A stretch of 32,000 bases of DNA from Acaryochloris marina S15 (GTDB taxonomy: Bacteria > Cyanobacteriota > Cyanobacteriia > Thermosynechococcales > Thermosynechococcaceae), in the NCBI RefSeq assembly GCF_018336915.1, contig NZ_CP064923.1:2490001-2522000 (forward strand), read 5' to 3'. The notes beneath the pieces are model-generated. The model was not told the origin of the DNA. It ran no database searches and worked only from the letters and a program-made list of their open reading frames with translations. Both the position numbers and the translations under genes were made by a program. Positions 14,817 to 31,989 of the stretch are shown piece by piece (positions within the stretch are counted from its first letter, which is position 1; each line of letters begins with the position of its first letter).

Positions 14817-14864
14817 TGTATGTATTTAGAAAGATTAAACTGTCAGTCATGGGAGAAATAGCTA

Positions 14865-15821
14865 ATGGATAGCTCTACCCCTGTTATTTCTGTAATTATG
14901 CCTGTATTTAACTCTCTGCGTTATCTGGACGAAGCAGTTAATAGTATCCTACAGCAGAGTTTTCGAGACTTTGAGTTTTTGATTTTTGATGATGGATCTA
15001 CTGATGGTTCTCTGAAGAAGTTACAGCAATATGTAAACAAAGATAAGAGAATTCAATTGTTTGCCCGAGAGCATAGGGGCTTAACAATATTGCTTAATGA
15101 AGGGCTGAAAAAAGCCAGAGGCAAATATATTGCCCGAATGGACTCAGACGATATTGCCTTGATAAATCGATTTGAGACCCAACTGACATTTTTAGCCCAG
15201 AATCCAGAGTGCGTGGCAGTAGGTTCAGAAATCTTGAGAATTGATCCAGAGGGTTTACCCATTGGTATTAAAGGACAGCCGACCAAACATGAAGAAATTC
15301 TCCAAGCTTTATTGAATGGTAAAGGAGGGATTATTAACCACCCTAGTGCGATGTTTCCTCGTGCAGCCCTTGAAAAAATTGGTGGATATCGTTGCTATTT
15401 GGAACCGGCAGAAGACTTTGATTTATTTGTTCGGCTTTCTGAGATTGGTACGCTGGCAAATCTTCCTCAAGTGTTGATTAAGTATCGCCTTCATTGTCAG
15501 AGAACAACCAATCGTAGAAGGGACATTCAGTTGGAAAAAGTTCGCGAGATTGTACACCAAGCTTGGTTCAAGCGGGGCATGGGTGCTCCACCCAAAGATT
15601 TACTTAATAGCCAGCCAATTTTATCTCCCATAGAAAGTAGAAATCATTGGGCTCAAACAGCCATATCCCAAGGATATTTAGTTACTGGCTTAAAGCATTT
15701 CTTTATTCTCTTAGTCAATAGGCCTTATTCGCTAACTACTTGGAAAATGGTGTTGAGGGCCTTAATGAAGTCCAGTAAACATAGGAACTTAGCCAATTTT
15801 GTAAATTCTGCAGCGAGGTAA
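14865..15821 (+). CDS. Glycosyltransferase family 2 (GT-A)
   Basis: 318 aa. Motifs are ISVIMPVFNSLRYL, LIFDDGSTDGS, ARMDSDDIA and EDFDLFVR. It is colinear with 13692-14816 over the first ~200 aa. Confidence 0.9.
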   Translation: MDSSTPVISVIMPVFNSLRYLDEAVNSILQQSFRDFEFLIFDDGSTDGSLKKLQQYVNKDKRIQLFAREHRGLTILLNEGLKKARGKYIARMDSDDIALINRFETQLTFLAQNPECVAVGSEILRIDPEGLPIGIKGQPTKHEEILQALLNGKGGIINHPSAMFPRAALEKIGGYRCYLEPAEDFDLFVRLSEIGTLANLPQVLIKYRLHCQRTTNRRRDIQLEKVREIVHQAWFKRGMGAPPKDLLNSQPILSPIESRNHWAQTAISQGYLVTGLKHFFILLVNRPYSLTTWKMVLRALMKSSKHRNLANFVNSAAR

Positions 15822-15828
15822 ACATGAG

Positions 15829-16920
15829 ATGGTCCTAGGCGTTAGTATTATTATTTGCTGTTATAACAGTGCTCAGGAGCTACCACAGACCCTTCAGAAT
15901 CTAGTATTACAACAAGTCTCGGCTGACGTGCCCTGGGAAGTGGTAATCATCGATAATGCTTCAACGGATGCGACAGCAAAAGTAGCCCAATCTCTTTGGC
16001 CAAACTCTGCACCTGCTCCGCTCAGGATTGTCCATGAATCTAATTTGGGGCTAATCAATGCACGGTATAGAGCATTATCAGAAGCTCAATATGAGATTCT
16101 CAGTTTTATCGATGATGATAACTGGATTTGTTCAAATTGGGTGCAGACAGTCTCAGAGTTGATGTCTCATAATTCTGAGATTGGGGCATGTGGCAGCCAT
16201 AATATTCCGGCATTTGATGGGGAAAAACCTTGGTGGTTTGACCTAAGTTCTAGAAGTTATGCGGTTGGTAAACAAGGGCCTGATGAAGGAGGAGATATTA
16301 CTGGGTCAAGAGGGAGGTTAATTGGTGCAGGACTAACGATTCGCAAGTGTGCATGGCAACAACTTGTTGATAAAGGATTCAACTCTTTACTCGTAGGTTG
16401 CCAGGGAAAAGCATTGAATCGAGGTGAGGATACAGAGCTAACCTTTGCTCTTGTACTAGCTGGTTGGCGAATATGGTATGAACCCCGGCTCACACTACAG
16501 CATCACTTACAAGCAGAACGGTTGCAGTGGTCTTATTTGCGCCGTTTACGTAGAAATGGAGGAAAAGCAACTATTGGCTTTGATCCTTACCGATTTGCGT
16601 TTGAAGAAAAGGGGAGCGAACATCATATTTCTTTCTGGTGGAATGTCACTAAGAAATCTGATCAAAAATTTGAGCGGCAAGTTTGGTATTTTCAGGTTGT
16701 TTCAGTCTTGAAAGAGTTGCTTTGGACACCTATGAAATTATTTACCTCCTTTTTCCGTCCGATGGAAGGAAGCTTAGATGTATTGAAAATTGAGACTAAA
16801 ATTGGCAGGTTACTAGAGCTACTAAATAATCGAAGAGCATACGATATAAATATTCAGTCTGTTAGAAATGCTGCGTGGAGAAACAAGAATTTAGAGCATA
16901 AAATTGTATTTATGAAATAA
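15829..16920 (+). CDS. Glycosyltransferase family 2 (GT-A)
   Basis: 363 aa. Motifs are VSIIICCYNS, VVIIDNASTDAT, FIDDDNW (DxD) and NRGEDTELTF. Confidence 0.85.
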   Translation: MVLGVSIIICCYNSAQELPQTLQNLVLQQVSADVPWEVVIIDNASTDATAKVAQSLWPNSAPAPLRIVHESNLGLINARYRALSEAQYEILSFIDDDNWICSNWVQTVSELMSHNSEIGACGSHNIPAFDGEKPWWFDLSSRSYAVGKQGPDEGGDITGSRGRLIGAGLTIRKCAWQQLVDKGFNSLLVGCQGKALNRGEDTELTFALVLAGWRIWYEPRLTLQHHLQAERLQWSYLRRLRRNGGKATIGFDPYRFAFEEKGSEHHISFWWNVTKKSDQKFERQVWYFQVVSVLKELLWTPMKLFTSFFRPMEGSLDVLKIETKIGRLLELLNNRRAYDINIQSVRNAAWRNKNLEHKIVFMK

Positions 16921-17021
16921 TTTTTATATTACAAAGAGAATCGTTTAAGAATGGATAAGCAATGGTGATCTTTTAAATTGATCGGCAAGAAAAATTTATA
17001 GAATAGTTAACAAAAAGTGTA

Positions 17022-17996
17022 ATGATTAGAAAAGATAAAGGAGCATTTGTTTTAGTAATTCCTGTTCGAAATCCTCAGGACCAAAAGGTTATTGATTATA
17101 GCTGTATTGAAGCGATATTACATGAAACGGTAAGGTCACTTACCCAGCAATCCTATAGTCACACCCATATTGTTATTGTTTGCCACAAAATCCCTTCATG
17201 GGGAGGGACAATAGGAAACAATGTGACTTTTTTAAATGTCTCAAATATCCCAGCATTCCCTGCCAATAAAAATCCTGTAAGAGTAGATAAGGGATTGAAA
17301 TATATTATTGGTATTTTATATGCAAAAAATAATCTCAATCCAGATCTAGTCATGCCGATGGATGCAGATGACTATGTGAATGTTAAGCTTGCCAGTAAAT
17401 TGGTAAAAAAAGATAAATTCAATAGATTCAATAGTAATAGAGATGGATATATCTTAAAGAAAGGGCTACATGTAAACCTCCAAATTGCTGCTGACTACTC
17501 AGTGAATTATGAAGTGGCGTATTTAGTTGAGGAATTTGATCGAACCTGTGGATCTTGTAGAGTTTTTAAGACAGATGCTCTAATGAAATCAATAGAAACA
17601 ATTGATGTTGATATAGCTAGTCGATTTAGTTACTGGCCATTGCGATCGCAAAATGCATCGGTGACTGTTCCTGCTGAGCCAGTAATGTGGCTCAGTGATA
17701 TTTCTCAGCCACATTACTTAAGTGAAAATAATATTGTCAATATTTTAGGTAGGCATATCAAGCAAAGTCCATACTTTAAGTTGGCACCCCTTAACTTCGT
17801 AGGTGCAGCAAAAGGATGTGGCCATGGCAACCATGATGGCCCTAAACAAGGTGAGGTTCATATGGATAAAATTATTGGCAATATTTCTGCTCAACAATTT
17901 TGCAATAACTTTGGGATACTCAATAAAAACTATCTTAAACCAACCCACAAAAAAATAAACCTGGGTTTTCTTACGAATAAATTTCCCTTGTTTTAG
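17022..17996 (+). CDS. Divergent GT-A-like putative glycosyltransferase
   Basis: 324 aa. It has an N-terminal beta-strand motif FVLVIPVRNP and a DxD-like LVMPMDADDYV at the spacing expected for a GT-A fold. The rest is unrecognised. Confidence 0.4.
   Translation: MIRKDKGAFVLVIPVRNPQDQKVIDYSCIEAILHETVRSLTQQSYSHTHIVIVCHKIPSWGGTIGNNVTFLNVSNIPAFPANKNPVRVDKGLKYIIGILYAKNNLNPDLVMPMDADDYVNVKLASKLVKKDKFNRFNSNRDGYILKKGLHVNLQIAADYSVNYEVAYLVEEFDRTCGSCRVFKTDALMKSIETIDVDIASRFSYWPLRSQNASVTVPAEPVMWLSDISQPHYLSENNIVNILGRHIKQSPYFKLAPLNFVGAAKGCGHGNHDGPKQGEVHMDKIIGNISAQQFCNNFGILNKNYLKPTHKKINLGFLTNKFPLF
17642..17649. repeat. HIP1 octamer GCGATCGC
   Basis: Exact match. Confidence 0.95.
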
Positions 17997-18134
17997 ATTT
18001 TTGTATGCAAACTAGCTTAATTTTTTAATCTCAAGACATGAGAGTATTTATAACTATTTACTATGCTATTTTTTGTGGATTGAAGTTGTTATTTTCAAAT
18101 ATTAAAAATTATAAAAAATTGACCTATATAAATC

Positions 18135-19112
18135 TTGGTGAATAGAGAAGTGGATATGCATGAAAATATCTTAAGTTCTCAAAGAGACACAACAATCAAA
18201 CCGATTCAATGGTCTAATGTCTTGAGTTGGGCTACTGAAACTGCAAAACAAGATCGGCACTCATATCAATCTCACCCGAGATCACACTCTATCCAACGAT
18301 TAAAGGCGATGTGGACGCCTAACTTACATCAACCGTTGTTTATCATTGGTTCTCCTCGTTCTGGCACAACGTTCTTAGGAGCTTGTATTGCTGAATTACC
18401 AGAGATCTCTTATCATTTCGAACCGGTAGCATCTAAAGCTGCAGCTCGTTATGTTCACGAGGGACAGTGGGAATTCAGTAAAGCTAAGAGCTTCTATCGA
18501 GCGGTGTATGCCTGGTTGATGCGACTTCATTTTGATGCAGATTTGCGTTTTTCGGAGAAAACCCCCCGAAACTGCTTTCTAATCAACTTTTTATACCAGA
18601 TATTCCCTGACGCCCAGTTTATCCATATTATTCGAGATGGTAGAGATGCTGCCCTCTCCCATAGTCAGAAACCATGGTTACAGGCCGCTTCTGCCCAGTC
18701 CGGCAAGCGAGAGTCGAGTGGCTATCGCTACGGCCCCTATGCTCGTTTTTGGGTGGAACCTGAAAGAAAAGATGAGTTCGAAACTACAAGTGATATACAC
18801 CGCTGTATCTGGGCCTGGAGACGCCATACTGAAAGCATTCTGGCACAATCCAAAAACTTACCAAGAGCTCAATATTATGAACTTCGTTATGAAGCTTTCG
18901 TCACTTGTCCCCATGAAGAGGCTGATCGCTTGCTGAACTATCTGAATATTGTTCAATTTAGCTCTCGAGAACGCCTACATGAAGCTTTTGCTCGTGCTAA
19001 TTCCCAGTCGGTGGGGAGATGGAAAGATGCATTGACCCCTGAACAGGTAAAACAGATAGAACAGGAGGCAGGTCCGATGCTTCAAGCATTGGGGTATCTG
19101 CAGGGATCATGA
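18135..19112 (+). CDS. Sulfotransferase (P-loop type), type 3 of 3, first of a tandem pair
   Basis: It has a 5'-PSB loop FIIGSPRSGTTFLG and a 3'-PB IHIIRDGRDAALS. The ORF-track start is a TTG at 18135. An ATG at 18156 (MHENIL...) is the more likely start. Confidence 0.85.
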   Translation: MVNREVDMHENILSSQRDTTIKPIQWSNVLSWATETAKQDRHSYQSHPRSHSIQRLKAMWTPNLHQPLFIIGSPRSGTTFLGACIAELPEISYHFEPVASKAAARYVHEGQWEFSKAKSFYRAVYAWLMRLHFDADLRFSEKTPRNCFLINFLYQIFPDAQFIHIIRDGRDAALSHSQKPWLQAASAQSGKRESSGYRYGPYARFWVEPERKDEFETTSDIHRCIWAWRRHTESILAQSKNLPRAQYYELRYEAFVTCPHEEADRLLNYLNIVQFSSRERLHEAFARANSQSVGRWKDALTPEQVKQIEQEAGPMLQALGYLQGS

Positions 19113-20065
19113 AAAACGCAATAAATGTATCTAAAACAATTCAAGATCCTATTTTCTTAGTGGGTTGTCCCCGCTCAGGTACAACTCTCCTTCAGCAAAT
19201 GTTGGATGCCCATCCTGATATTGCGATCGCACCCGAAACTTTTTTTATCCGAAACTTTTGGTTAAAGCAAGACAAATATGGAAACTTAGGAGAAGACCAT
19301 AATTACTACCAGCTCGTAGAAGATATTATTTCGTTGCCAGAATTTCAAGAAATGGAATTAGATCCAGAGGTCTACCGAGCAGCTGCTTGGAAATCTTCGC
19401 GAAGTTACCCTTTGCTTTTACGTCTTCTCTTGGAACAATTTGCCCACAAAAGGGACGTAGCTATCGTTGGGGAAAAGACACCAAATCATTTGCTGTACAT
19501 ATCAATACTCCAGCAATTTTTCCCTACTGCCCGATTCGTTCATATTGTCCGGGACCCCCGAGCTGTTGTTGCATCCTGGCAAACGGTCCCTTGGACAACG
19601 GGAACCCTAGCAGGTGATGCAGCAGTGTGGCGACGTTATATGTCAACAGCAAGAGGATGCCCAGTTGCTTTGAAGCCCTCACTATATACACTTCATTACG
19701 AAGCCCTCATTGAGACCCCAAAAATCACCTTAAAAGCCCTGTGCCAATTTCTCCAAATTCAGTTCGAACCAGCCATGCTGGCGTATCATCAACAACCATC
19801 TCATACTGTTAATGCTAAGCGCGAACCCTGGAAAATTAATGCAAAAAAGCAACTAAGCCAAACCTCCTTGAGCCGTTGGCAATCCACATTATCCAACTCG
19901 ATGATTGCTGAAATTGAGGTGGTTGTTTGGCCAGAAATGATGCATTTTGGCTATAGTCCCATCACGAACCGTGTAGCCCTCGCCACTACAAAAACTTTTA
20001 AGATCGTGCAAAGTAAGTTTCAGAGGGCGATATCGCGCTTGAAATCTCCAACCCTTGGGATATAG
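19109..20065 (+). CDS. Sulfotransferase (P-loop type), type 3 of 3, second of the tandem pair
   Basis: 318 aa. Motifs are FLVGCPRSGTTLL, GEKTPNHLLY and VHIVRDPRAVVAS. Its ATG overlaps the upstream stop (ATGA at 19109-19112). Confidence 0.9.
   Translation: MKNAINVSKTIQDPIFLVGCPRSGTTLLQQMLDAHPDIAIAPETFFIRNFWLKQDKYGNLGEDHNYYQLVEDIISLPEFQEMELDPEVYRAAAWKSSRSYPLLLRLLLEQFAHKRDVAIVGEKTPNHLLYISILQQFFPTARFVHIVRDPRAVVASWQTVPWTTGTLAGDAAVWRRYMSTARGCPVALKPSLYTLHYEALIETPKITLKALCQFLQIQFEPAMLAYHQQPSHTVNAKREPWKINAKKQLSQTSLSRWQSTLSNSMIAEIEVVVWPEMMHFGYSPITNRVALATTKTFKIVQSKFQRAISRLKSPTLGI
19223..19230. repeat. HIP1 octamer GCGATCGC
   Basis: Exact match. Confidence 0.95.
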
Positions 20066-20067
20066 AG

Positions 20068-21357
20068 ATGAAACTTGGATATTTGCATATTGGTTCTCCT
20101 GAACATGGCGTATGTCGCTATGGACGTTTACTGGCGACAGAGGCGCGCGGATTGTCTACTCTTTCTGTCATAGAAGCTGAGGTAGAGCTAACCCTAGATC
20201 ATCGGCAAAACCGAGCAGAAATCATTAAAGCTGCAAGACATCTCTCATCGGTGGATATTGTTCATCTTCAGTACAGCATAAAAAATAACAAAGGCTTGTG
20301 GGGACTAGGTTGGACCCAGCTGACTCATCTTCGGCTTTTTAGACAGTACTGTGCACAACCACTAGTCGTCACTCTTCATGATGTTTATGACTTACCCCCC
20401 AATCCGAGCAAAATTCCTGGTTATGTCTCTCGCATCCTGCACCGGTGCTCACCCAATCTTCTGGCCAAGGGCACTCCAAATAAATCTCTATCTCAGGCAG
20501 AGAAACTTTCCTTAGCGAATCTGCTTGACTCAATTCGACAATACCGTTGGCTTGTGCAGGGAGAAATACTCAGAATCCCTGGTGACATCTCATTGTATTG
20601 GTTATTGAGACAGGTCAAATTGGTCTTTGTCTCTTCTGAAGAAGAGAGAAGACGATTGAGCCAGGGTGATATAGGTTCTACAACAGTGATTCCGCACTTT
20701 GTTGAACAGCGATCGCCGACTCTTTCCAAGAAAGAAGCCCAGCAGGCATTAAACTTGCATGGATTTCAGGTCATTACACTTCTCGGATTTATTCATGAAC
20801 GTAAGGGGCACCAGTTACTACTGAAAGCGCTTTCCCAACTCCCAGAACAGGTCATAGTGGTTTTTGCTGGGGGAGCGAGTCCTGGCAATGAACATTTTCT
20901 CAAAGACCTACTAGCCCTGGCAAAGACAGATGGCGTTGAGCATCGCTTACGTATCACGGATTATTTGTCTGAAGTTAATTTAGAGCGCTATTTGATGGCC
21001 ACAGATTTGGCTATTTGCCCATTTCAATCCTTTGCTGCCTCAGGATCACTCTCAACTTGGATCTCTGTTGGTCGATCGCTATTAGCTTTTAACCTTCCAC
21101 AAATTGCTGAATATAATCGGATCGAGCCAGATTCAATTAAAACGTTTCAACCCTACACTCCAGAAGCACTAGCGAGCGAGATTAAGCACTTATTATCCGC
21201 AGGGATTAAGGCAGAAGATATAGCTGTCGATCGGCTTAAACAAAGACTGTTATTGCCAGTCACCTTTAATCAACATCTAGTTCGTTATCAGCAAGTGGTA
21301 ACTGCCCTTAACAAGACGATTGTTCGTCCTACCCACGGCATTAAGCCTAGCTATTGA
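20068..21357 (+). CDS. Divergent GT-B-fold glycosyltransferase-like protein
   Basis: 429 aa. It has the GT1/GT4-like layout ITLLGFIHERKGHQLLLKAL ... VVFAGG ... ICPFQSFAASGSLSTWISVGRSLLAFN. The E-x7-E region is degenerate (Ser/Gly in place of Glu). The ATG is 2 nt after the upstream stop. Confidence 0.55.
   Translation: MKLGYLHIGSPEHGVCRYGRLLATEARGLSTLSVIEAEVELTLDHRQNRAEIIKAARHLSSVDIVHLQYSIKNNKGLWGLGWTQLTHLRLFRQYCAQPLVVTLHDVYDLPPNPSKIPGYVSRILHRCSPNLLAKGTPNKSLSQAEKLSLANLLDSIRQYRWLVQGEILRIPGDISLYWLLRQVKLVFVSSEEERRRLSQGDIGSTTVIPHFVEQRSPTLSKKEAQQALNLHGFQVITLLGFIHERKGHQLLLKALSQLPEQVIVVFAGGASPGNEHFLKDLLALAKTDGVEHRLRITDYLSEVNLERYLMATDLAICPFQSFAASGSLSTWISVGRSLLAFNLPQIAEYNRIEPDSIKTFQPYTPEALASEIKHLLSAGIKAEDIAVDRLKQRLLLPVTFNQHLVRYQQVVTALNKTIVRPTHGIKPSY
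20709..20716. repeat. HIP1 octamer GCGATCGC
   Basis: Exact match. Confidence 0.95.
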
Positions 21358-21379
21358 GTTTGAAAGAGGCAAATCACTT

Positions 21380-22558
21380 ATGCATTTCTCTTCATCTATA
21401 AAGCATGCATCTAGGCAGAGCCAAGCGGCTAATGAATCAACTGGGAACAGATCTGATCTGAAAATGACTGTTTACTTTGCACCCCAGTATTTGTCCATTA
21501 ATCCCTATCAAAAGCAGTTGGCTAGCTCCCTAAAAGATCTGGGAGTTCGAGTTGAGGGAGTGAATGGGATGAAGGCATTTTTACCCACAGCAATCAAATC
21601 TAGGAATCTGAACGTTGTCCATCTGCACTGGTTACATCAATACTATCGAGCCCCGGAGTTCAGAAATTTCCCTATCCTCAAGGTTTTAAGATTCCCTTTT
21701 GCATTATTGACCCTTATAAAATTTCTGTTGGGCTTAATTTTTTTGAGAATTGCGGGTGTAAAGCTTGTCTGGACTGCCCATAATCTTGAGAGCCATGAGG
21801 CTTTATTCCCTCTGTTAGACTACATTTGCAGACTGGTTGTTGTACATATATCAGATTCTGTAATTGCTCACGGTCATGCTGCTAAGTCTGCAATTGCCAA
21901 AAGATATCGGCTCAAAAAGTTAGAGAAGATACTGGTAGTTCCCCATGGAAATTACATTCAGTCCTATGACAACTCAATGGCTCAGCCTGAAGCCCGTCAG
22001 GTTTTAGGTATCGAAAATACCAGTCTTGTCTTTCTCTTTTTAGGCTTAGTGAGACCCTATAAAGGAGTAGGAGAATTAATTGAAATTTTTAATCAGTTAG
22101 AGCACCCTGATAAAACACTCATCATTGCTGGAAAAACCTTAAACGATACATTCTCTCAAGAGATCAAAGCCAAAGCTGCAACCCAAACTAACATCAAGTT
22201 CATTCCTGGCTTCGTCCCTGATGAGCGAATTCAAATATACATGAATGCCAGTGATGCTGTCGTTTTCCCTTATCGTGATGTTTTAACATCAGGCGCGGCG
22301 ATCTTAGCGATGTCTTTTGGTAAACCTTGTGTTGCTCCAAGAATGGGTTGTCTCCAAGAGATTTTAGATACTGCTGGAGCTTTTTTGTACGAACCTGATC
22401 AAACTGATGGTTTGTTGAAGGCAATGGAGCAAACAGCTTACAAAAAAACCGATTTGCTATCTATGGGAGCGCATAATCGGTGTTTAGCAGAACAATGGGA
22501 CTGGACTACTATTGCGAAGCAAACCCTCGAAATATATTTACAGAAGTCCAATGCTTAA
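21380..22558 (+). CDS. GT-B-fold glycosyltransferase (group 1-like)
   Basis: The ORF track opens at a TTG at 21320, overlapping the upstream gene by 38 nt. I prefer the ATG at 21380, which is preceded by GAAAGAGG; an ATG at 21464 is also possible. Motifs are FLFLGLVRPYKGVGELI, IIAGK and VFPYRDVLTSGAAILAMSFGKPCVAP. Confidence 0.7.
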   Translation: MHFSSSIKHASRQSQAANESTGNRSDLKMTVYFAPQYLSINPYQKQLASSLKDLGVRVEGVNGMKAFLPTAIKSRNLNVVHLHWLHQYYRAPEFRNFPILKVLRFPFALLTLIKFLLGLIFLRIAGVKLVWTAHNLESHEALFPLLDYICRLVVVHISDSVIAHGHAAKSAIAKRYRLKKLEKILVVPHGNYIQSYDNSMAQPEARQVLGIENTSLVFLFLGLVRPYKGVGELIEIFNQLEHPDKTLIIAGKTLNDTFSQEIKAKAATQTNIKFIPGFVPDERIQIYMNASDAVVFPYRDVLTSGAAILAMSFGKPCVAPRMGCLQEILDTAGAFLYEPDQTDGLLKAMEQTAYKKTDLLSMGAHNRCLAEQWDWTTIAKQTLEIYLQKSNA

Positions 22559-22610
22559 TGGATAAAGAGGCTTCAGGCTGAATATTTAATGTTTATGAAT
22601 ATGCATTGCT

Positions 22611-23528
22611 ATGTCTAATACTGTTACTCATCCAGCCATCAAGATCGCAAAACCAGAAACCATTCCATTTGTTTCAGTCATCATACCTGTGTTCAATGAT
22701 TCAGAGCGGCTGTTTCAATGTTTGCAAGCATTAGAAAATCAGACTTATCCTGGTAAAACGTATGAAGTAATTGTGGTCGACAATGCTTCTGATGATGATG
22801 TCAGTGCTGTGGTAGACCAGTTTCCCTATGCTTCCACGACCTTGGAACTCCAGCAGGGGTCTTATGCGGCTCGCAATACTGGGATTGCGATCGCAAAAGG
22901 AAACATCCTAGCCTTCACAGATGCAGACTGTATACCAGCCCCCGACTGGATTGAAAAAGGAGTTCAGAGTTTACGCGACGTTCCGAACTGTGGTCTGGTA
23001 GCTGGCAGAATTGAATTCAGCTACCAAAACCCCCAGCAGCCGAACTCCATAGAACTCTGCGATAGTGTGCTGTACTTACAGCAAGATTTGTATTTAAAGC
23101 ATGCCAAGTTTGGCGCTACGGCAAATGTCTTTACCTACAAATCAGTCTTTGCCGAAGTCGGTTTATTTGATCAAATCCTGAAATCTGGGGGGGACTATGA
23201 ATGGGGGCAACGGGTTTTTGCCGCAGGGTATCAGCAGGTCTATTCACCAGAGGCTTATGTCTATCACCCAGCTCGATATTCCTTTGAACAGCTCTACAAG
23301 AAAATCCTCAGAACAACCCGAGGTCCTTACGATTTGAGTCAGTCTAGTACCTACTCCCTGAAGAAATTTATCAAAGATATCGCTAGAGATGTTTTCCCCC
23401 CTTTCAAAACCTTTGGTCGGGCGCGGGTAGATACCGTCCAACAAAAACTGCGATTGTGGTTTGTGTTGACCTTTATCAAGCATTTAACGGCTTTAGAGCG
23501 GGTAAAGGCACAACTCAAGTTTGGCTAG
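22611..23528 (+). CDS. Glycosyltransferase family 2 (GT-A)
   Basis: 305 aa. Motifs are VSVIIPVFNDSERL, VIVVDNASDDD and FTDADCIP. Its last 111 codons lie inside unit 1 of the tandem duplication. Confidence 0.9.
   Translation: MSNTVTHPAIKIAKPETIPFVSVIIPVFNDSERLFQCLQALENQTYPGKTYEVIVVDNASDDDVSAVVDQFPYASTTLELQQGSYAARNTGIAIAKGNILAFTDADCIPAPDWIEKGVQSLRDVPNCGLVAGRIEFSYQNPQQPNSIELCDSVLYLQQDLYLKHAKFGATANVFTYKSVFAEVGLFDQILKSGGDYEWGQRVFAAGYQQVYSPEAYVYHPARYSFEQLYKKILRTTRGPYDLSQSSTYSLKKFIKDIARDVFPPFKTFGRARVDTVQQKLRLWFVLTFIKHLTALERVKAQLKFG
22887..22894. repeat. HIP1 octamer GCGATCGC
   Basis: Exact match. Confidence 0.95.
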
Positions 23529-24011
23529 TCGTCTTTAAGTGTGATGCCAGTCCGGGGGAATGAAAACGTGACTATGTAATTAGCCCATGTTCAGAAGAAA
23601 TGGACTATGAATGGGGGCAACGGGTTTTTGCCGCAGGGTATCAGCAGGTCTATTCACCAGAGGCTTATGTCTATCACCCAGCTCGATATTCCTTTGAACA
23701 GCTCTATAAGAAAATCCTCAGAACAACCCGAGGTCCTTACGATTTGAGTCAGTCTAGTACCTACTCCCTGAAGAAATTTATCAAAGATATCGCTAGAGAT
23801 GTTTTCCCCCCTTTCAAAACCTTTGGTCGGGCGCGGGTAGATACCGTCCAACAAAAACTGCGATTGTGGTTTGTGTTGACCTTTATCAAGCATTTAACGG
23901 CTTTAGAGCGGGTAAAGGCACAACTCAAGTTTGGCTAGTCGTCTTTAAGTGTGATGCCAGTCCGGGGGAATGAAAACGTGACTATGTAATTAGCCCATGT
24001 TCAGAAGAAAT
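23192..24011. repeat. Tandem duplication, 2 x 410 bp (23192-23601 and 23602-24011)
   Basis: Block-by-block comparison gives 409/410 identity. The only difference is C23297 versus T23707 (TAC to TAT, synonymous Tyr). Each unit holds the GT2 3' end, the 58-bp intergenic region and the first 15 nt of the downstream lipoprotein gene. Confidence 0.95.
23600..23938 (+). pseudogene. Duplicated C-terminal fragment of the GT2 gene (112-codon ORF with a junction-created ATG)
   Basis: The protein is identical to the last 111 residues of 22611-23528. The ATG (23600-23602) spans the duplication junction: AT comes from codon 5 of the lipoprotein gene and G from the GT2 sequence. The fragment lacks the GT-A catalytic N-terminus. 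Confidence 0.8.
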
Positions 24012-25127
24012 CGCTATAAACGGTATTTCATCTCATTGTGCATTCTGCTAGGCATATTCGGACTATTAGCCTGTCAGCAGGTTAGCAGCAGCTCCTCATC
24101 GACGCCTCAGGCTCGCGTTGAGTCTCGTCCAGTGGACTATGGCCACAATGCGCCAACCTCTAGGGATAAATTTCTCTGGCCGTTTTCCTCAGACTCCATA
24201 TGGAATATGCCCATTGGCTCTGATGCTCAATATAAGCCAGCCCGCATTAAGTCAGCCCCCCGTTTGCGATCTGATGAAGAGTATTTCTTTGAGCTTAAAG
24301 GGGATGATCCTCGTCAACCAGTTTATGCACCAGGTTCGTGGAAAAAACGCTGCAAAGGGAAAAAGAAGTCCATGAAGATTTCCCTTCCGGTTCCAGACGA
24401 TCTGATCATTCCCGATGCGGAGAAGGGGAAGACACCGAATAATGCATCGGCATTTCTGATGCCTGATGGCAAGACATTGGTGCAGCTTGAACCGCTGGCA
24501 CGCTGTGAGCCAGGAGGTCCCATTTATGGCTGGCGGTATTTTCCCAACGTTGATATCTACACTGCAGGCATTGGTGGTGCTCACTTTGGATCAGGACTAT
24601 CTTCTATCGGTGGCTCAATCCGAGAAGGGGAATTGGTCGATGACGCCCCGATTCGACATGCGTTAAAGATTAATTTGTGGGGTAAAAAATATCTTTACTA
24701 TTCTAAGCGCATCCCTGGATATCGTTGGCCAGCAGATCGTGCTGATAAGTATGCAGCCAAACAGTATGGGGGCAAGAATCCTGAGTTGGTTCAAGGTGCC
24801 TTATTAGCGATTCCCCCTGATCTCTCAGTGTCCAGCCTGGGACTCAAAACGCAACCGGCCAAAAAGCTTTTTCATGCGTTCCAAGACTATGGGGCTTACG
24901 TGGTCGATGATACGGACTGGAACGCCCATGCTATCCCTTTGGAGCATAGTGTACTGAAAGAGTTTCGACGGACCTATGGCTATTCCTTCAACACTTCAGA
25001 AGGTCCTTTCTTCGATGATGTGATTAAGCTGTTTACCGAGCTTTCGGTCGTATCTAACAATACGCCTGAGTCAGTGGGCGGAGGTGGCACCCCTAGAGCG
25101 CCATTGGCACCGCCCATTCGCAATTGA
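23997..25127 (+). CDS. Putative lipoprotein carrying an unassigned ~320-aa conserved domain (paralog of the central domain of 25132-28389)
   Basis: 376 aa. A signal peptide with a lipobox-like LLAC (Cys26) is followed by a Ser-rich linker SSSSSSTP. Residues ~58-374 align colinearly with residues ~465-789 of the RTX protein. Confidence 0.75.
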   Translation: MFRRNRYKRYFISLCILLGIFGLLACQQVSSSSSSTPQARVESRPVDYGHNAPTSRDKFLWPFSSDSIWNMPIGSDAQYKPARIKSAPRLRSDEEYFFELKGDDPRQPVYAPGSWKKRCKGKKKSMKISLPVPDDLIIPDAEKGKTPNNASAFLMPDGKTLVQLEPLARCEPGGPIYGWRYFPNVDIYTAGIGGAHFGSGLSSIGGSIREGELVDDAPIRHALKINLWGKKYLYYSKRIPGYRWPADRADKYAAKQYGGKNPELVQGALLAIPPDLSVSSLGLKTQPAKKLFHAFQDYGAYVVDDTDWNAHAIPLEHSVLKEFRRTYGYSFNTSEGPFFDDVIKLFTELSVVSNNTPESVGGGGTPRAPLAPPIRN

Positions 25128-25131
25128 CAGC

Positions 25132-28100
25132 TCAATCAATATATTTAACAAACGAACCGTCTAGGTTAAAGGAATTTGCACCTTTAATAATCGCAACGAT
25201 TTCATCAGCTTGATTCGTAATGCCATCTCCATTGGTATCCAAGTATATTTCTGCCCCTTTATTACTGGTACCGACAACATACTGTTGGGCAGATCCTAGA
25301 AGGAGAAGGGTGTCTTTATCCTTACTGAAGTCATTAATTTGGGCAAATTCATCTTGCTTCAGAGGGGTACTACGATTACTTTGTAAAAACTCGACTCGAC
25401 CGACGACATCAAATGTGTCGGAACCTGCCCCTCCTGTCAGGCTGTCTTTACCCGAACTGCTAACTAGGACATCCCCCTGTTTCCCGCCGATTAGCTGATC
25501 ATGGCCTTTACCACCATGTAAATGGACGGTGCCTTGAAATTGGGATGCATCTAGTTTGTTATTGCTATCCCCACCACTGAGAATGACATGTTCAATACTA
25601 TCGAGGGTATCGGTCCAGGTGCCAATCAGCTTGTTCTCCGTCAGCTCAAGGTCAATATCATCTGACTCGATCACGGTGTCAAAGCCAGTACCACCCATTA
25701 AGCGATCTTTACCGGTTCCTCCCGTCAGATGATCGTCGCCCTTGCCCCCTTCCAGGATGTCACTATAGGCACCTCCATCTAAGTAGTCATTTCCATCTCC
25801 CCCTAGTAAATGATCGGAGCTGGTATCACCAATGAGGTGATCATTGCCTTTACCGCCATCGAGGGTATCTTTACCCGACCCACCGGTGATGAAATCATGT
25901 CCACCTCGTCCTTGGATCAGATCATTCCCTTTTTTGCCATCCATCCGGTTGGCTTGGTCATCCCCCTCAAGATTATTTGAGTCGGCGTTGCCGATAAATG
26001 CTGGCGGGGCAGCGACATCAAAGTCTGGAGCTAGGGGAGTACGGGGTGTTCCACCGCCACCGATGTTATCTAAGGCATTGTTGTCAATGACATGCAGGGC
26101 CGAAAATAACTGCATATAGTCATCATAAAAAGGACCACTGTTGTCGGTAAAACTAAAGCCATAGTGGCTGGAAAATTCTTGCGTGACCCCTTTCTCAACT
26201 GCAATAGCATGGGCATCCCATCCGGTATCGTCGGCCAGATAAGCCCCATAGTCCTGAAGGGCATAGAAAAGTTTTTTGCCAACCTCGGTTTGAATCCCTA
26301 ATTTATCTGGCGTCATGTCCGGTGGAATAGCTAGCAAGCTGCCGTTGAGTAGTTCTGGGGTAGCACCCGCATAGGTCTGTGGGCTGATATGGGTGTCTGC
26401 TTTCACAGCAGGCCAACGATATCCTAGTCCTCCACCTGGGCCTTTGGTATGAGAAAAATACTTTTTCGTCCAAAGATTCACTTTTAGGGCATGGCGGATG
26501 GGATCATCACCAATGAGTTCACCCTGTCGAATGGTGCCACCGATGGAGGATAACCCAGACCCAGCATGGGCCCCCTCGATACCCGTTCCATAAATATCCT
26601 CATATTTGGCAACATCCAGGGTATAGGGTAAGCGTTGGCCGTAGACGAAATCACGGTTGCGATCGCGAGTTAATGCATTCACCTGAACTAGGGTGCGGCC
26701 ATCGGGCATTAAAAAAGCCGCAGAATTGTTAGGGGTCTTGCTATTGGTCGAATCAGCAATCAATAAATCATTAGGTAAGGGCAGGGATATTCCTTGATAG
26801 GTGCTGCCAGTGGTGCGACCTGGTCCCCAAGTTCCCTGGTTATAGAGGGGTTGTAACGGGTCATCCCCCTTAAGGATGTAAAAGTGATCCACATCTACTG
26901 TGGCGTTTTTTGCCTTTTCAATCTTGGCATCCACATATTCAGCATTAGACCCAATGGGGGTATTCCATATCGAGTTGGCAGCAAAAGGCCGCAGGGTTAC
27001 ATCCCGTGTCGCCACAGTTCCTCCTGTATTGGTTGTAGAGCTAGTAGTTTTAGAACCTTGAAGCAACCCACTGCCTTGAATGGCTAAAAAACTAACAACT
27101 TCGCTCGTATGGGAAGTTTCCGCATCCGCAGTGGTGTCTTCTTCTACCTTGACTTCTACAGAAGTATTGTGAAGATTACGATAACGAACCCCTGCAGAAT
27201 CGCCTCCATCGTATGAGGCAAGGGACGCTAAAAAATTTGGAGTGGAGGTGAAACCGGAAAAATCAATGGATGCCCAATCATGGGTAATGGTATCTCCTGT
27301 TTGCCCAACTTGATACGCTAACCCTCCCCACGTTCCTGACCCTGACTCAATCGCTAACCATCCCACCGACTCTGACACATGACCAGAATATTTTTTCTTT
27401 TCTTCCTCTTCCATGCCCACCTGAAAGCCACTGACTGTCGTGGCTTGCTGCCGCGTGCGCACAAAATCTGAACCATCCGCAGTTTGCACTTGACTGAAAA
27501 CGATGGGGGAATCCGAAAATTTTTGATTAAAGTTAACGGTTTCAAATCTACTGGTGACCAAGCCACTGGTATCTAGGGTGCCAACTTCTAGCTTTGTGCC
27601 ATCTTCTAAAACCCATGACCCAGCTTCCAAGACGATATAACTAATATCCTCAGCTACATGTTGGCCATCATGATTACTGGGTTCTTGGATATAGAGTTCG
27701 AAACGATTACTTTGAATGTTGTCAATTCGAACTGTTGCAGGCTGTCCACCATTAAAACTCAGGGTTTGGGCGAAAATGACAGGGTTTATGTAGTCATGCT
27801 GAAGTTGGATGGTCTGTTTAAGATGGGTCAGACCAGAAATTTGCCCTACTTCACCTAGTGTGGCAATGGATGTTGCTGACCTAGGAACTGCAGACTGTAT
27901 GGGAGAAGTGGCTAAAGCTGTCCCCGAAACAATCGGTGCAGGTGTCTGATAAAATATCCTGACATTTCGAAACAAGCTATCCGCCTTGGGGTGTGGGACA
28001 TCTTGATCATTGCCAAAGGTTAAATAGGCGATATTGCCCGTGAAAAACTCGCCTACAGGAATGCGGTAAGTGAGCCAGTCACCGATAACAGTCTGATAAT

Positions 28101-28389
28101 GGTTGAACTGGCTGATTCCCCAAGGTTGACTACCAAATAATTGAAAACTTTGGGTCGGACTCAGAATATTATCAGTATCAAATCCAATACTGTGAATTTC
28201 TCCTTGAACATTGCTTTTAAAGTCAAACTCTAAAACAGTACTTTTCGTAATTTGGTAAGGCAGCTTGATTTTTTTCCAACCATTCCCAGATAACTGCAAT
28301 ATATTGCCATTGGATAGAGTGGAAAAGCTCAGTTTCTGATCTTGAGAGCCTCCATAGGATTCAATCTGGTAATTATTGAAATTCAGCAT
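25132..28389 (-). CDS. Large multidomain RTX-repeat (hemolysin-type Ca-binding) secreted protein
   Basis: 1085 aa with no N-terminal signal peptide. Residues ~1-150 look like a beta-sandwich/CBM. Residues ~192-445 are three internal ~85-aa repeats. Residues ~465-789 are the domain shared with the neighbouring lipoprotein. Residues ~806-1000 are GGxGxD nonapeptide repeats (GGSGKDTLDGGKGNDHLIG, GGDGNDYLDGG, GGKGDDHLTGGTGKDRLMGGTGFD). The C-terminus is acidic. Confidence 0.9.
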   Translation of the reverse strand: MLNFNNYQIESYGGSQDQKLSFSTLSNGNILQLSGNGWKKIKLPYQITKSTVLEFDFKSNVQGEIHSIGFDTDNILSPTQSFQLFGSQPWGISQFNHYQTVIGDWLTYRIPVGEFFTGNIAYLTFGNDQDVPHPKADSLFRNVRIFYQTPAPIVSGTALATSPIQSAVPRSATSIATLGEVGQISGLTHLKQTIQLQHDYINPVIFAQTLSFNGGQPATVRIDNIQSNRFELYIQEPSNHDGQHVAEDISYIVLEAGSWVLEDGTKLEVGTLDTSGLVTSRFETVNFNQKFSDSPIVFSQVQTADGSDFVRTRQQATTVSGFQVGMEEEEKKKYSGHVSESVGWLAIESGSGTWGGLAYQVGQTGDTITHDWASIDFSGFTSTPNFLASLASYDGGDSAGVRYRNLHNTSVEVKVEEDTTADAETSHTSEVVSFLAIQGSGLLQGSKTTSSTTNTGGTVATRDVTLRPFAANSIWNTPIGSNAEYVDAKIEKAKNATVDVDHFYILKGDDPLQPLYNQGTWGPGRTTGSTYQGISLPLPNDLLIADSTNSKTPNNSAAFLMPDGRTLVQVNALTRDRNRDFVYGQRLPYTLDVAKYEDIYGTGIEGAHAGSGLSSIGGTIRQGELIGDDPIRHALKVNLWTKKYFSHTKGPGGGLGYRWPAVKADTHISPQTYAGATPELLNGSLLAIPPDMTPDKLGIQTEVGKKLFYALQDYGAYLADDTGWDAHAIAVEKGVTQEFSSHYGFSFTDNSGPFYDDYMQLFSALHVIDNNALDNIGGGGTPRTPLAPDFDVAAPPAFIGNADSNNLEGDDQANRMDGKKGNDLIQGRGGHDFITGGSGKDTLDGGKGNDHLIGDTSSDHLLGGDGNDYLDGGAYSDILEGGKGDDHLTGGTGKDRLMGGTGFDTVIESDDIDLELTENKLIGTWTDTLDSIEHVILSGGDSNNKLDASQFQGTVHLHGGKGHDQLIGGKQGDVLVSSSGKDSLTGGAGSDTFDVVGRVEFLQSNRSTPLKQDEFAQINDFSKDKDTLLLLGSAQQYVVGTSNKGAEIYLDTNGDGITNQADEIVAIIKGANSFNLDGSFVKYID
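26659..26666. repeat. HIP1 octamer GCGATCGC
   Basis: Exact match. Confidence 0.95.
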
Positions 28390-29119
28390 GATCTCTTATT
28401 CGTATGATTCCAATAAATTATTCATTTTTTGACAAGTTGATATCGCATTCCTAATGCTAAAAAGGAATACTTTTCTGGGCGTATAAAAAATGACCACAGC
28501 AAGGAGACAATTTTGAGTAGGCTTAACAGTCCTAAAATTGCTTCAGCTATCGTTAAACCAATTTGGAGTAAAGTGTCTGCCTATGCTGCATAGTAATTTT
28601 TGGAATGCCATAAACTGATAGGCATTCTATTTTGCACCTAGCTATTCGCCAGAAAATCTATTCTATGGAGACAGAAGTACGCAAAGCCAACCTCTGTGGA
28701 GCTATTATCTTGTATTCGTTATTACTGTAAAAATTGTGTATGAGGTCAATAAGCTACGATGTAGTGATGCTTCTTGTCTCATTAAAAATCTCGACATTTA
28801 GATGTCCCCCAACTTCTGTCACTTGCACTCAGGAATACTATCTCTTCCTCAAAAATACTTTGCCATGAATTAACAAGAGAATTCTATAAGTCAATATGCA
28901 TGGCTGATATTTTTCATGCATTGAATTCGAATTCTAATCATGCAAGATTATCTGAGGTAAAGTGTGTTCTGAGTAAAAATATCAAAGCTTGATATTAAAG
29001 CTCTGAAGCAAAATATAGTGCTTGGTTATAGAATTCCCAGAGCATCTATTTTAATGACATGAAAAAGTTGGAATGTCATGATTTTATGATTTGATTAAAT
29101 CGTTGAAGAAGAGATAAGT

Positions 29120-30430
29120 CTATTGCCTTAATATCTCATCGAATGTGTTCTTCATTGATTTAGCCCAGATTCGGTAGCCTTGTGGAGATAAGTGTAGATA
29201 ATCAGGCATTACTGTTTTAGAAATTTTGCCATCAGGTTCTAGAAAACTTGGCCCCATATCCAGAAATCGAATGGTCGAACCATTGTCAAGCTGCTCAATT
29301 TGTCTATTAATAGCCTGAATTTTTTTTCTGTTGGGCGTATGGGGTTGCTTGCCCGATGGAAGAATTCCAAGGAGGAGGATTTTAGTCTGTGGGTTTTTGA
29401 TCCGAATTTTGGCAACGATTTTCTCAATTCCTGTCGCAATACGGGCTGAACTAAAAGAATCTTGCCAGAGATTATTAACGCCAATATTGAGAACGACTAA
29501 CTGAGGTTGTATGTCGTCAAATAGGCCATGGTCAATTCGCCAAAGAACTTGTTGTGTGCGATCGCCACCAATACCAAAATTTGCGGCGCCAAGGTTGCCA
29601 TAGTGTTGTTGCCAGAGCTTTTTATGCTTTCGCCACCCGCGGGTAATCGAGTCACCTAAAAAGACAATATTGATTTGGCGTTTCTGAGTTTGTTTGAGAT
29701 GTTGCTGATGGAGCTTCAACCATGCTTGGGGAAATTTTGGATAGTGACCGGGCATGGGAACAGTGGGATCTTGCTGTTTCGGAGTGACAGTGGGTTTTGG
29801 TTGTTTCGGAGCAGATGCTTTTTCAAGATGATCCGCTATGTTTTTGATGTTTGAGCCAGTCAGTTTGACTTCATCTAACCAGGCTTTCCCCTGACCTTCT
29901 ATCAGCAAAACGATTCCAAACTTATGAGTTTTGGGAGGTAAGATAACCTCCTGAGAGAAGGAACTCCAATCCTGAGTATTGTGGAGATACTTGACTTGCT
30001 GAAATTGGAGCGGGCGTGATTGTTTAGAAAAAGACTGAATGGCAATATTGACTTTGACCTTCCCTGTGGATTTAGCAAAACCGCTGACAGTGAAAGACTG
30101 ACGAGATGCCCCCTTGATCAGTTGAAATGCCTGTCCTTTAGCAGGGCCAGACGTACTAGCCACCTTTAGGGCAGCAGGGCCCTGTTTAAAAATTTGAGTA
30201 TCCCGTGTAATGGAGATCTTGCCTTTTCCCACCCACTGATGATGCCAATAGTCAGGGACCGTCGTTCCTAGAGTCATCGCACCATTACGTAGGGTGATGG
30301 GTTGTCTGCCCTTCTCTTTTGCCGAGGGGGGTGGCGATTTTTGCGCCTGAGAAGATTGAAGTGATATGCAGCCTGCTAGAGTTACTAACCCCATGATCAG
30401 CGAGGCTCCTATTGCTCTATGTCGATACAT
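29120..30430 (-). CDS. Lipoprotein with CBM-like N-terminal domain and SGNH/GDSL hydrolase domain (PAF-acetylhydrolase-Ib-like carbohydrate esterase)
   Basis: 436 aa. The signal peptide has a canonical lipobox LAGC. SGNH block I is IVFLGDSITRGW, block II is NFGIGGDRTQQVLWRI, block III is VVLNIGVNNL and block V is PDYLHLSPQGY. Confidence 0.85.
   Translation of the reverse strand: MYRHRAIGASLIMGLVTLAGCISLQSSQAQKSPPPSAKEKGRQPITLRNGAMTLGTTVPDYWHHQWVGKGKISITRDTQIFKQGPAALKVASTSGPAKGQAFQLIKGASRQSFTVSGFAKSTGKVKVNIAIQSFSKQSRPLQFQQVKYLHNTQDWSSFSQEVILPPKTHKFGIVLLIEGQGKAWLDEVKLTGSNIKNIADHLEKASAPKQPKPTVTPKQQDPTVPMPGHYPKFPQAWLKLHQQHLKQTQKRQINIVFLGDSITRGWRKHKKLWQQHYGNLGAANFGIGGDRTQQVLWRIDHGLFDDIQPQLVVLNIGVNNLWQDSFSSARIATGIEKIVAKIRIKNPQTKILLLGILPSGKQPHTPNRKKIQAINRQIEQLDNGSTIRFLDMGPSFLEPDGKISKTVMPDYLHLSPQGYRIWAKSMKNTFDEILRQ
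29558..29565. repeat. HIP1 octamer GCGATCGC
   Basis: Exact match. Confidence 0.95.
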
Positions 30431-30594
30431 GATGGGCTGCCCATTGTATTGCTGTTAGATTGTCACATCTCTAACGGTTGAATTGGCGTAACCCAGATTA
30501 CTCAATAAGCACTGTTCGTTAGGGTCGTGGCTTCCGTGGGGGGAGAGGTATGAGGATGAAAGCGTAATTTTTGTACATTATTCAAGTTTTTAGT

Positions 30595-30636: not shown

Positions 30637-31989
30637 ATGGACTACGAATTTAGAGTGATTGTGGAGAAAGTTTCGGTTACCACTCAGGAAGTCGTTAAAC
30701 GAGACACTCTAAAAATCTATGACATCAAGCAACCAGAATCTATTCTAGATCTAGGATTGCGTCACGAAGAACAAATCTCTCTGCTTTCCAAAGTCCAAAG
30801 TGCTCTGTTATCCGAACAATCTACCCTCATCGATACTGGAGTTACGCAGTGCATCAAATGTGGTGGGAAAATAGGCAAGCTTGGTTTTCAACCATCTACA
30901 TTCCATGCCGTCTTCAGCGATCATAAACTCCGTATCCAAAAACATCGGTGCAAGAATCCTGAGTGTCGATGGCAAAGTATGCCATCGGTGTTGAGCGTCT
31001 TTGGCACAGATACTCATCCTGACTTAGTAAAACTGCAATGTGAGAATGGTGCCTTGCATAGCTATCGAGAAGCTCAGGATAATATGGAGCGGCTGAATGC
31101 TCAGCGCCGGAGTGTGAATAACCATGTCCAAATCAAAAACGTGACCAATCAAGTCGGTGAGCGTTTATCTCAAGCGAACACTACCCCTCCAGATCAAGAA
31201 GAGTTACCCACCCCGGCAGCAGAACTCATTGCTCAAGTCGATGGGGGTCATATTCCTACCAAAGATAAAGACAAGCGCAGTTTTGAAGCCTTATCTGGCA
31301 TCGTTTATCGTCCTAGTGCCATTGAAGTAGTTGATAAACATCATCGCCAAATTACGGAAAAGACTTGTGTTGTTTCCGCCTTAGAGGATGAGTTGCAAAC
31401 CATCAAGACCTATCTGCATCATGCGGCACTTAAACAAGGGATGACAGAAGAGACACAGGTCACTGCCTTGGCCGATGGTGCTAGCAACTGCTGGTCAGTC
31501 ATCTCAGTTCTTGAGCCTCATTGCAAAGCATTAGAGCTGATCTTGGACTGGTTTCATATCGGCAAGAAATTCCGAAATGTCAGCAATGCACTGGGTGAAA
31601 CCTTTGCAGAATCCCTCGATAGTGCGAAGGGGAGTTTATGGCATGGAAAAGTAGATGATGCTCTGCAGAAGATTGCCATGCTTCGAGACAACATTTCAGA
31701 TGAGAAGAAGCAAACAAAGCTCAAAGGCTTATACGATTACTTAAAGAATAACAGTGAATATCTTGTCAATTATGACGAGCGAGATAAAGCGGGGCTAGCT
31801 TATACCAGTCAAGTTGCAGAATCTCATATTGACACCCTCATTAATGCTCGCCATAAAAAGAAGCAGAAGATGCAATGGACTCGGGTAGGTGCCCATAATG
31901 TCTTGCAAATCAGGGCGAGTATGATCAGTAATGAATGGAGTGATAATTGGCTAGATTTAGTTCTTCCTGAAGAAGAAAAAGCTGCTTGA
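30637..31989 (+). CDS. DDE-type transposase, ISKra4-family-like
   Basis: 450 aa. It has an N-terminal Cys cluster (CIKCGGK ... CKNPEC) and candidate catalytic regions QVDGGHIP, LADGASNCW and LDWFHIGKKF. The N-terminus MDYEFRVIVEKVSV resembles cyanobacterial proteins annotated as ISKra4-family, from memory and not searched. The IS ends were not identified because the window stops 11 nt after the stop codon. Confidence 0.65.
   Translation: MDYEFRVIVEKVSVTTQEVVKRDTLKIYDIKQPESILDLGLRHEEQISLLSKVQSALLSEQSTLIDTGVTQCIKCGGKIGKLGFQPSTFHAVFSDHKLRIQKHRCKNPECRWQSMPSVLSVFGTDTHPDLVKLQCENGALHSYREAQDNMERLNAQRRSVNNHVQIKNVTNQVGERLSQANTTPPDQEELPTPAAELIAQVDGGHIPTKDKDKRSFEALSGIVYRPSAIEVVDKHHRQITEKTCVVSALEDELQTIKTYLHHAALKQGMTEETQVTALADGASNCWSVISVLEPHCKALELILDWFHIGKKFRNVSNALGETFAESLDSAKGSLWHGKVDDALQKIAMLRDNISDEKKQTKLKGLYDYLKNNSEYLVNYDERDKAGLAYTSQVAESHIDTLINARHKKKQKMQWTRVGAHNVLQIRASMISNEWSDNWLDLVLPEEEKAA

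Follow-up and report, generated by a model that had tools for sequence, protein, structure and literature searches.

A very probably genuine but probably inconsequential 410-bp tandem duplication across the boundary of a glycosyltransferase and a lipoprotein gene in Acaryochloris marina S15

The chromosomal stretch of Acaryochloris marina S15 analysed here (NZ_CP064923.1, positions 2,490,001 to 2,522,000; referred to below as the window, 32,000 nucleotides in length and numbered from its first nucleotide) contains a 410-bp tandem duplication that runs from the interior of a family 2 glycosyltransferase (GT2) gene into the first codons of its downstream neighbour, a predicted lipoprotein gene. 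We interpret the duplication as a genuine, young, strain-specific and near-neutral structural variant that would be short-lived, and the 112-codon open reading frame (ORF) arising at its join as a by-product, a reading to which we assign a probability of about 70%. Acaryochloris is a chlorophyll-d cyanobacterium, and a second, smaller duplication nested within the same segment was found in another strain of the genus, 'Moss Beach'.

Structure of the duplication and its support in an independent assembly

A single tandem array was identified by TRF at positions 23192-24011 (period 410, 2.0 copies, score 1633), and this is the only repeat of 30 nt or longer in the window. Base-by-base comparison of the two units gives 409/410 identity, the sole mismatch being C23297 in unit 1 versus T23707 in unit 2. 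Position 23297 is the third position of a codon in the GT2 ORF, at which TAC becomes TAT and Tyr is encoded in both cases, so that the change is synonymous. A 410-bp repeat at 99.8% identity cannot have originated by chance. The bases flanking the breakpoints are unmatched (G23191 versus T23601, and G23602 versus C24012), indicative of 0 nt of junction homology, and the sequence flanking the join is AGAAGAAAT/GGACTATG, also given as TTCAGAAGAAAT/GGACTATGAATGG. The GT2 and lipoprotein genes are both intact, because unit 1 finishes the former and unit 2 begins the latter, and the net change is therefore a 410-bp insertion between the two genes comprising a 3' remnant of the GT2 gene and an extra spacer (Table 1). 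The original prediction, made from the sequence and an ORF list, had described two 410-bp units with one synonymous difference, exact boundaries without microhomology, a unit extending from the GT2 interior through its stop codon and the 58-bp spacer to nt 15 of the lipoprotein gene, and two ORFs opening at ATG 23600-23602 (112 codons) and ATG 23587 (MFRRNGL and a stop); direct comparison, TRF and the ORF coordinates reproduce this description throughout.

Table 1. Positions of the duplicated units, the join and the associated genes and reading frames in the window
Feature	Position	Strand	Remarks
GT2 (GT-A fold) glycosyltransferase gene, 305 aa, intact	22611..23528	+	PF00535, AlphaFold2, Foldseek
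G7 run holding the left breakpoint (23191/23192)	23187..23193	+	read from sequence
Tandem unit 1	23192..23601	+	GT2 codons 195-305 and stop, 58-nt spacer, first 15 nt of lipoprotein gene; ancestral C23297
Segment duplicated in 'Moss Beach' (window equivalent)	23310..23573	+	wholly inside the 410-bp unit
Spacer copy 1, 58 nt	23529..23586	+	upstream of the 7-codon ORF start
7-codon ORF (MFRRNGL, stop) from the duplicated native lipoprotein start	23587..23610	+	overlaps ATG 23600 in another frame
Novel join point AGAAAT/GGACTA (23601/23602)	23587..23616	+	zero microhomology; in no relative locus compared
112-codon junction ORF, M plus GT2 residues 195-305	23600..23938	+	ATG 23600-23602 across AAT/G
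Tandem unit 2	23602..24011	+	derived T23707; ends in the genuine first 15 nt of the intact lipoprotein gene
Spacer copy 2, 58 nt	23939..23996	+	immediately 5' of the intact lipoprotein gene
Predicted lipoprotein gene, 376 aa, intact	23997..25127	+	mainly cyanobacterial family, no Pfam domain, no PDB fold match

An independent check was provided by the Logan assembly of run SRR12447961, which was matched to the window. Logan assemblies are k=31 de Bruijn graphs in which each 31-mer is kept once and singleton k-mers are discarded (PMC12424806). Two contigs of this assembly (L002 of 8682 nt and L001 of 6575 nt) align to the window with 100% identity over 15.3 kb and 0 mismatches. L002 spans 14540-23221 and stops exactly 30 nt into unit 1, and L001 spans 23982-30556, its first 30 nt being the final 30 nt of unit 2. 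Contig ends placed k-1 = 30 nt inside the repeat boundaries indicate that the graph branches at the unit boundaries, a pattern that requires reads following each of the two paths, the one through the junction among them, with the k-mers concerned occurring two or more times. Single-copy strains processed by the same pipeline have unbroken contigs of 37-54 kb across the locus (L083, and L090 from the sister run SRR12447973). The duplication is thus very probably real and not an assembly artefact; the original argument on this point, that a single substitution between the copies speaks against a pure artefact, is strengthened by the branching of an independent graph at both unit boundaries. As a method, the points at which public k=31 graph assemblies break offer a way of checking short tandem duplications when the reads are out of reach. 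Scans of Joint Genome Institute metagenomes for the junction and the native boundary gave 0 matches, which is uninformative as the strain is absent there.

Ancestral state and a nested duplication in 'Moss Beach'

With the exception of 'Moss Beach', every sampled Acaryochloris lineage carries a single unit, and the gene order in these lineages is GT2, a spacer of 58-62 nt, the lipoprotein gene and a convergent RTX gene. The single-copy lineages comprise L083 (99.4% nucleotide identity from 22858 rightwards, 41 mismatches in 4647), L090 (95.5% nucleotide identity), 22 contigs encoding a CCMEE 5410-type GT2 protein (about 86% nucleotide identity), 14 contigs encoding an MBIC11017-type GT2 protein (about 85% amino acid identity for GT2) and the metagenome-assembled genome (MAG) IP29b (79% amino acid identity for GT2). 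Substitutions were polarised using these lineages as outgroups. At position 23297 the C is ancestral, being also present in L083, L084 and L038, and the derived T23707 is confined to unit 2. Both units carry T23333, a derived state of the window lineage. L083 differs from the window units at five sites, all five shared by both units, and three of these differences arose on the L083 side. The duplication therefore followed both the split from this ~99%-identical relative and at least one lineage-specific substitution. One substitution, T23707, has accumulated since, which may instead reflect an error in the consensus or a change introduced as the duplication formed. Judged from these alignments, the duplication is derived, strain-specific and young, in agreement with the prediction of a recent rearrangement, a single unit being found even in the 99.4%-identical L083.

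The GT2 protein of 'Moss Beach' (P0019, 230 aa) led us to a locus on chromosome CP071717.1 (L091) that is ~99% identical to the window from 22856 onwards. Positions 5666-5929 and 5930-6193 of this locus (around 5,422,180-5,422,710 of CP071717.1) form a tandem duplication of period 264 with 100% identical copies and 1 nt of junction ambiguity, in which the repeated unit begins with the first base of codon R234, takes in the stop codon and ends after 45 of the 58 spacer nucleotides. At its junction, GTGACT/AGAACA, a GTG stands two codons ahead of GT2 residues 234-305 in the same frame, producing a 74-aa ORF. A homology search with the 112-aa ORF of the window returned a 64-aa remnant from 'Moss Beach' only, and no further duplicated strains. 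As a sample of the background rate, we surveyed the 1.0 Mb of loci compared together with 250 kb of the 'Moss Beach' plasmid pMB01. Apart from these two duplications, the 1.0 Mb of compared loci holds no near-perfect tandem repeat whose period is at least 100, no comparable duplication occurs in the 250 kb of pMB01, and zero were found in ~400 kb of other Acaryochloris DNA.

The 'Moss Beach' duplication is seen in a deposited assembly that derives from Nanopore R9.4 data and Flye, the Illumina coverage used for polishing being only 7x (PMC9029297). Three +1 insertions relative to L083, in C, G and T homopolymer runs at positions 4323, 5557 and 5570 of L091, split two GT2 genes; these indels are probably sequencing errors, not real pseudogenes, and the 230-aa GT2 (P0019) is one product of them.

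We favour independent origins for the two duplications, which the pattern of substitutions makes likely, because the copies group by strain and not by position: both 'Moss Beach' copies carry the substitutions specific to that strain (equivalent to 23347 and 23507), and both window copies carry the window-specific T23277. A shared origin, in which an ancestral 410-bp duplication was followed in 'Moss Beach' by the loss of 146 bp across the join and by gene conversion, is the less probable history, though one with appreciable points in its favour. The breakpoints agree exactly, as does the arithmetic (410 - 146 = 264), the count of rearrangements equals that for two independent duplications, and around the duplication the window and 'Moss Beach' look like sisters, having states in common that L083 lacks, such as T23333. 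Against this, the copies group by strain, repeated gene conversion would be needed, an unstable repeat would have to persist through ~0.9% sequence divergence, and a single unit is carried by L083 and the remaining clade members sampled. Under both histories, the segment would either be prone to duplication or keep duplications once they have formed.

The junction ORF, the doubled spacer and the question of selection

The complete GT2 protein matches PF00535 (E = 2e-25, 90.1 bits against a cut-off of 23.3), and the Pfam family Glyco_tranf_2_3 covers residues 21-237. Its AlphaFold2 model has a GT-A fold (mean predicted local distance difference test, pLDDT, 90.9; predicted template modelling score, pTM, 0.87) and is matched by Foldseek to AvpGT, K4CP and TarP with E ~1e-14. 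Acaryochloris alone supplies the nearest homologues of both the GT2 and the downstream protein (CCMEE 5410, MBIC11017, NIES-2412, 'Moss Beach' and the IP29b MAG). It had been proposed that the 112-codon ORF could express a free GT2 C-terminal domain, which is at odds with the position of its start inside the GT-A fold, at the invariant D195 that begins helix 194-204. According to the GT2 model the ORF keeps helix 194-204, strand 208-220 and the four C-terminal helices. Strands 1-7 are missing, as is the invariant pair D104/D106, and neither Pfam nor NCBIfam gave a match for the ORF. Missing both the nucleotide-binding half and the DxD-type motif, the 112-aa product as modelled cannot be a glycosyltransferase, and it is unlikely to fold alone. 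We consider the ORF to be most likely a gene-remnant by-product. It has nonetheless been deposited as a protein for the same genome in NCBI, UniRef and nr (P0258), suggesting that an entry that is most likely a gene remnant was treated as a coding sequence (CDS) automatically.

Likewise, simulation gave no support to a special meaning of the junction ATG. When 200,000 duplications were simulated with breakpoints drawn from the corresponding regions, an in-frame upstream start appeared in 48% of them, and within 5 codons in 18%, and the junction ATG is unremarkable. With regard to translation, the sequence upstream of the copied native start is the same as that of the original, and whatever directs ribosomes to the native start should also be in the copy. 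Ribosomes would therefore be expected to start mostly at 23587, which is 13 nt upstream of ATG 23600 and within the same footprint, and to make the heptapeptide.

No sigma-70-like promoter (0 sites) or plus-strand terminator was detected in the spacer, by a scan that misses cyanobacterial promoters consisting of a -10 element only, and no Rfam match was obtained at E <=1. The blocks TGCCAG, GAAAACGTGA and TAGCCC/TATG are conserved among A. marina-type lineages and not in the more distant L038. Of the predicted second lipoprotein upstream region in front of the fragment, the 58-nt copy is indeed present, but a promoter role gained no support in the form of a sigma-70-like, terminator or Rfam element.

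The N-terminus of the lipoprotein, MFRRNRYKRYFISLCILLGIFGLLAC/QQ, contains a lipobox-like LLAC (...GIFGLLAC/QQ), and AlphaFold2 predicts a signal helix at residues 5-28 followed by a disordered Ser-rich linker (29-56). The protein has no Pfam, NCBIfam or PDB sequence match, and its model (pLDDT 82.6, core >90) has no PDB fold match at E <=0.001. The family is highly conserved and includes 1844 homologues at E <=1e-5, mostly cyanobacterial and all annotated as hypothetical, with identities of 55-70% to proteins from Nostoc, Anabaena, Scytonema and related genera. Relatives fused to GDSL lipase or PF06439 domains hint at a carbohydrate- or ester-active enzyme. A 373-aa lipoprotein on a 1.7-kb contig was considered as a third duplication event and rejected as a mere length variant.

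An adaptive duplication would be an alternative to a near-neutral one, either through selection for a translated GT2 C-terminal helical module (residues 234-305, common to the ORFs of both strains) or through a doubled spacer that alters lipoprotein expression. Two overlapping duplications against none in the ~400 kb of other Acaryochloris DNA are suggestive in this respect, as are the start codons (ATG in the window, GTG in 'Moss Beach') that both junctions put no more than 2 codons from a GT2 C-terminal fragment in the same frame, the nearly invariant residues P263, P264 and E296 in the C-terminal part of GT2, the conserved blocks of the spacer, and the synonymous nature of the sole post-duplication substitution. 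However, with in-frame starts so frequent among random duplications, the placement of the start codons is a weak coincidence noticed afterwards; the fragment is cut mid-fold, the spacer scans turned up neither a promoter nor an RNA signal, the majority of strains in the 99% clade carry one copy, and one synonymous change has no statistical power. We therefore regard an adaptive duplication as improbable. We give slightly less credence still to the GT2 3' end and spacer being a site of repeated or selected duplication, by way of the C-terminal module (residues 234-305) or a doubled regulatory spacer; if true, the locus would be a natural snapshot of a new gene born from partial duplication.

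Several considerations weigh against our reading of a real, young and near-neutral variant. Calling the ORF a by-product and the duplication neutral is a matter of inference. One fixed substitution slightly exceeds what an unstable 410-bp duplication free of selection should have accumulated, and the duplication could be older or have been retained. Two overlapping duplications among the lineages sampled are unlikely at a uniform neutral rate (a rough upper bound of ~4%), leaving room for selection or shared ancestry. Finally, the read support is indirect, coming from graph topology, and a mixed population of one-copy and two-copy genomes would give the same pattern; a contig holding the junction was not found by exact-protein look-ups with the 112-aa ORF, the full GT2 and the 111- and 76-aa partial products, probably because short Logan contigs lack gene calls. 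On balance we still hold that this is a very probably real but probably inconsequential duplication, most likely neutral or slightly deleterious, that would be short-lived and could be lost by recombination between the 410-bp copies.

Origin of the join and genomic setting

The duplication probably arose in one homology-free illegitimate joining event linking nt 15 of the lipoprotein gene (23601) to the G7 run in the GT2 gene (23192). Comparison of the breakpoints revealed no in-register microhomology at the join; the sole shared 7-mer, GACTATG, is 33 nt out of register, and 25% of trials produce such a match by chance alone. Around the breakpoints, neither inverted repeats nor RNA or DNA folding exceeded what chance would give. 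An origin mediated by microhomology or repeats, such as slippage or RecA-dependent recombination between repeats, was rejected with 0 nt shared in register. The sequence of the join points to the homology-independent class of illegitimate recombination, from which any responsible enzyme or pathway can be inferred but indirectly.

A sharp recombination breakpoint was located at ~22857 (22850-22860) inside the GT2 gene, 334 bp left of unit 1. Identity to L083 is ~65% left of this point and 99.4% right of it, 'Moss Beach' is ~99% identical on the right, and the left side resembles the CCMEE 5410-type cluster (~86%), showing that the polysaccharide cassette in which the GT2 gene resides is a mosaic. 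The crossover lies 30 nt from a GCGATCGC (HIP1) site. A mechanistic link between this breakpoint and the duplication is unlikely, because both units share the five differences from L083 and because 'Moss Beach' is duplicated without the breakpoint. The corresponding scenario is that the duplication was a by-product of foreign DNA import, a donor fragment with a different exopolysaccharide cassette having recombined homologously on one side and illegitimately on the other with a 410-bp overlap (homology-facilitated illegitimate recombination). It draws on the proximity of the breakpoint, on a join made without homology and on the one base that differs between the copies, as donor and recipient might. 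Yet it would need donor and recipient to be near-identical here, with all five L083 differences in both copies, and strongly different 334 bp away, and 'Moss Beach' resembles L083 on both sides of the equivalent position; we consider it quite improbable. Least probable of all is an assembly artefact, in which the genome has one unit and an assembler or polisher made the second: both duplication-bearing genomes are complete long-read-type assemblies, that of 'Moss Beach' has lightly polished Nanopore sequence with homopolymer indels nearby, and no junction-containing read was seen, but the graph of SRR12447961 branches exactly where junction k-mers seen at least twice would make it branch, control strains assemble unbroken through the locus, the copies differ by one base, and 250 kb of the 'Moss Beach' assembly has no other such duplication, indicating that the assembler does not scatter them.

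Classical spontaneous tandem duplications in bacteria range from kb to Mb and form between long repeats, such as insertion sequence (IS) elements, rrn operons and repetitive extragenic palindromic (REP) sequences, via RecA, or at short junction homologies. The present duplication resembles them in having two head-to-tail copies with one novel join, a single-copy ancestor, revertibility by recombination, strain specificity and youth, but differs in being only 410 bp long, smaller than the gene at either end, and in having zero homology at the join. Short-homology-independent illegitimate recombination is divided into topoisomerase- or gyrase-mediated and end-joining classes, and shares with the join described here the blunt fusion of unrelated sequences, an assignment made by exclusion only. 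Gene remnants and chimeric ORFs created by partial duplication are comparable in that the 3' fragment of a gene gains a start codon from adjacent sequence and is annotated as a CDS (P0258), and are unlike the 112-aa fragment in that the latter is truncated mid-fold and known here from sequence alone. Acaryochloris is the same genus in which unusually many recent gene duplicates, mostly purged quickly, and several recA copies have been reported (Miller et al., 2011, PMC3156569; Garber et al., 2024, PMC11086944, the latter citing Anderson & Roth, 1977 and Andersson & Hughes, 2009 on duplications). The duplicates described in these studies involve complete genes, sit mostly on different replicons and are in tandem in only ~3% of cases (PMC3156569, PMC11086944), whereas the duplication in the window is a tandem repeat of parts of two genes that adds no functional gene copy. 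We regard it as a further example of a familiar class of event and not as a novel type of system, with recurrence in a second strain as the sole feature above the ordinary. The locus could serve for measuring the formation, loss and possible retention of short homology-independent duplications.

The duplication is at the 3' end of a polysaccharide gene cluster on the plus strand (269-25127), recognised by Pfam and NCBIfam matches. Its products include a Wzc-type tyrosine kinase, a Wzy_C-domain protein, an ABC exporter, six sulfotransferase-family proteins and several GT2 and GT4 glycosyltransferases, and by its gene content it looks like a sulfated-exopolysaccharide-type locus. A full-text literature search found no paper joining Acaryochloris, sulfotransferase and polysaccharide. 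The cluster is chromosomal, on a chromosome of 5,881,945 bp, and a megablast search of the locus against PLSDB plasmids returned no match. A protein with a prenyltransferase-like alpha-alpha toroid domain is encoded within the cluster at 11417-12610.

Beyond the lipoprotein gene, a convergent gene on the minus strand (25132-28389) encodes a 1085-aa RTX-repeat protein and adjoins the lipoprotein gene in every Acaryochloris relative examined. It contains internal families of 31-nt repeats, and clustered sites at 26279-26966, at which 'Moss Beach' and L083 share a base against the window and L090, suggest a local recombination tract. An ISKra4-family transposase gene is present at 30637-31989 (269.6 bits against a cut-off of 205). 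Contig L001 ends at 30556, ~80 nt before this gene, as expected for a multi-copy insertion element, and copies of the transposase that are ~90% identical occur on 'Moss Beach' plasmids.

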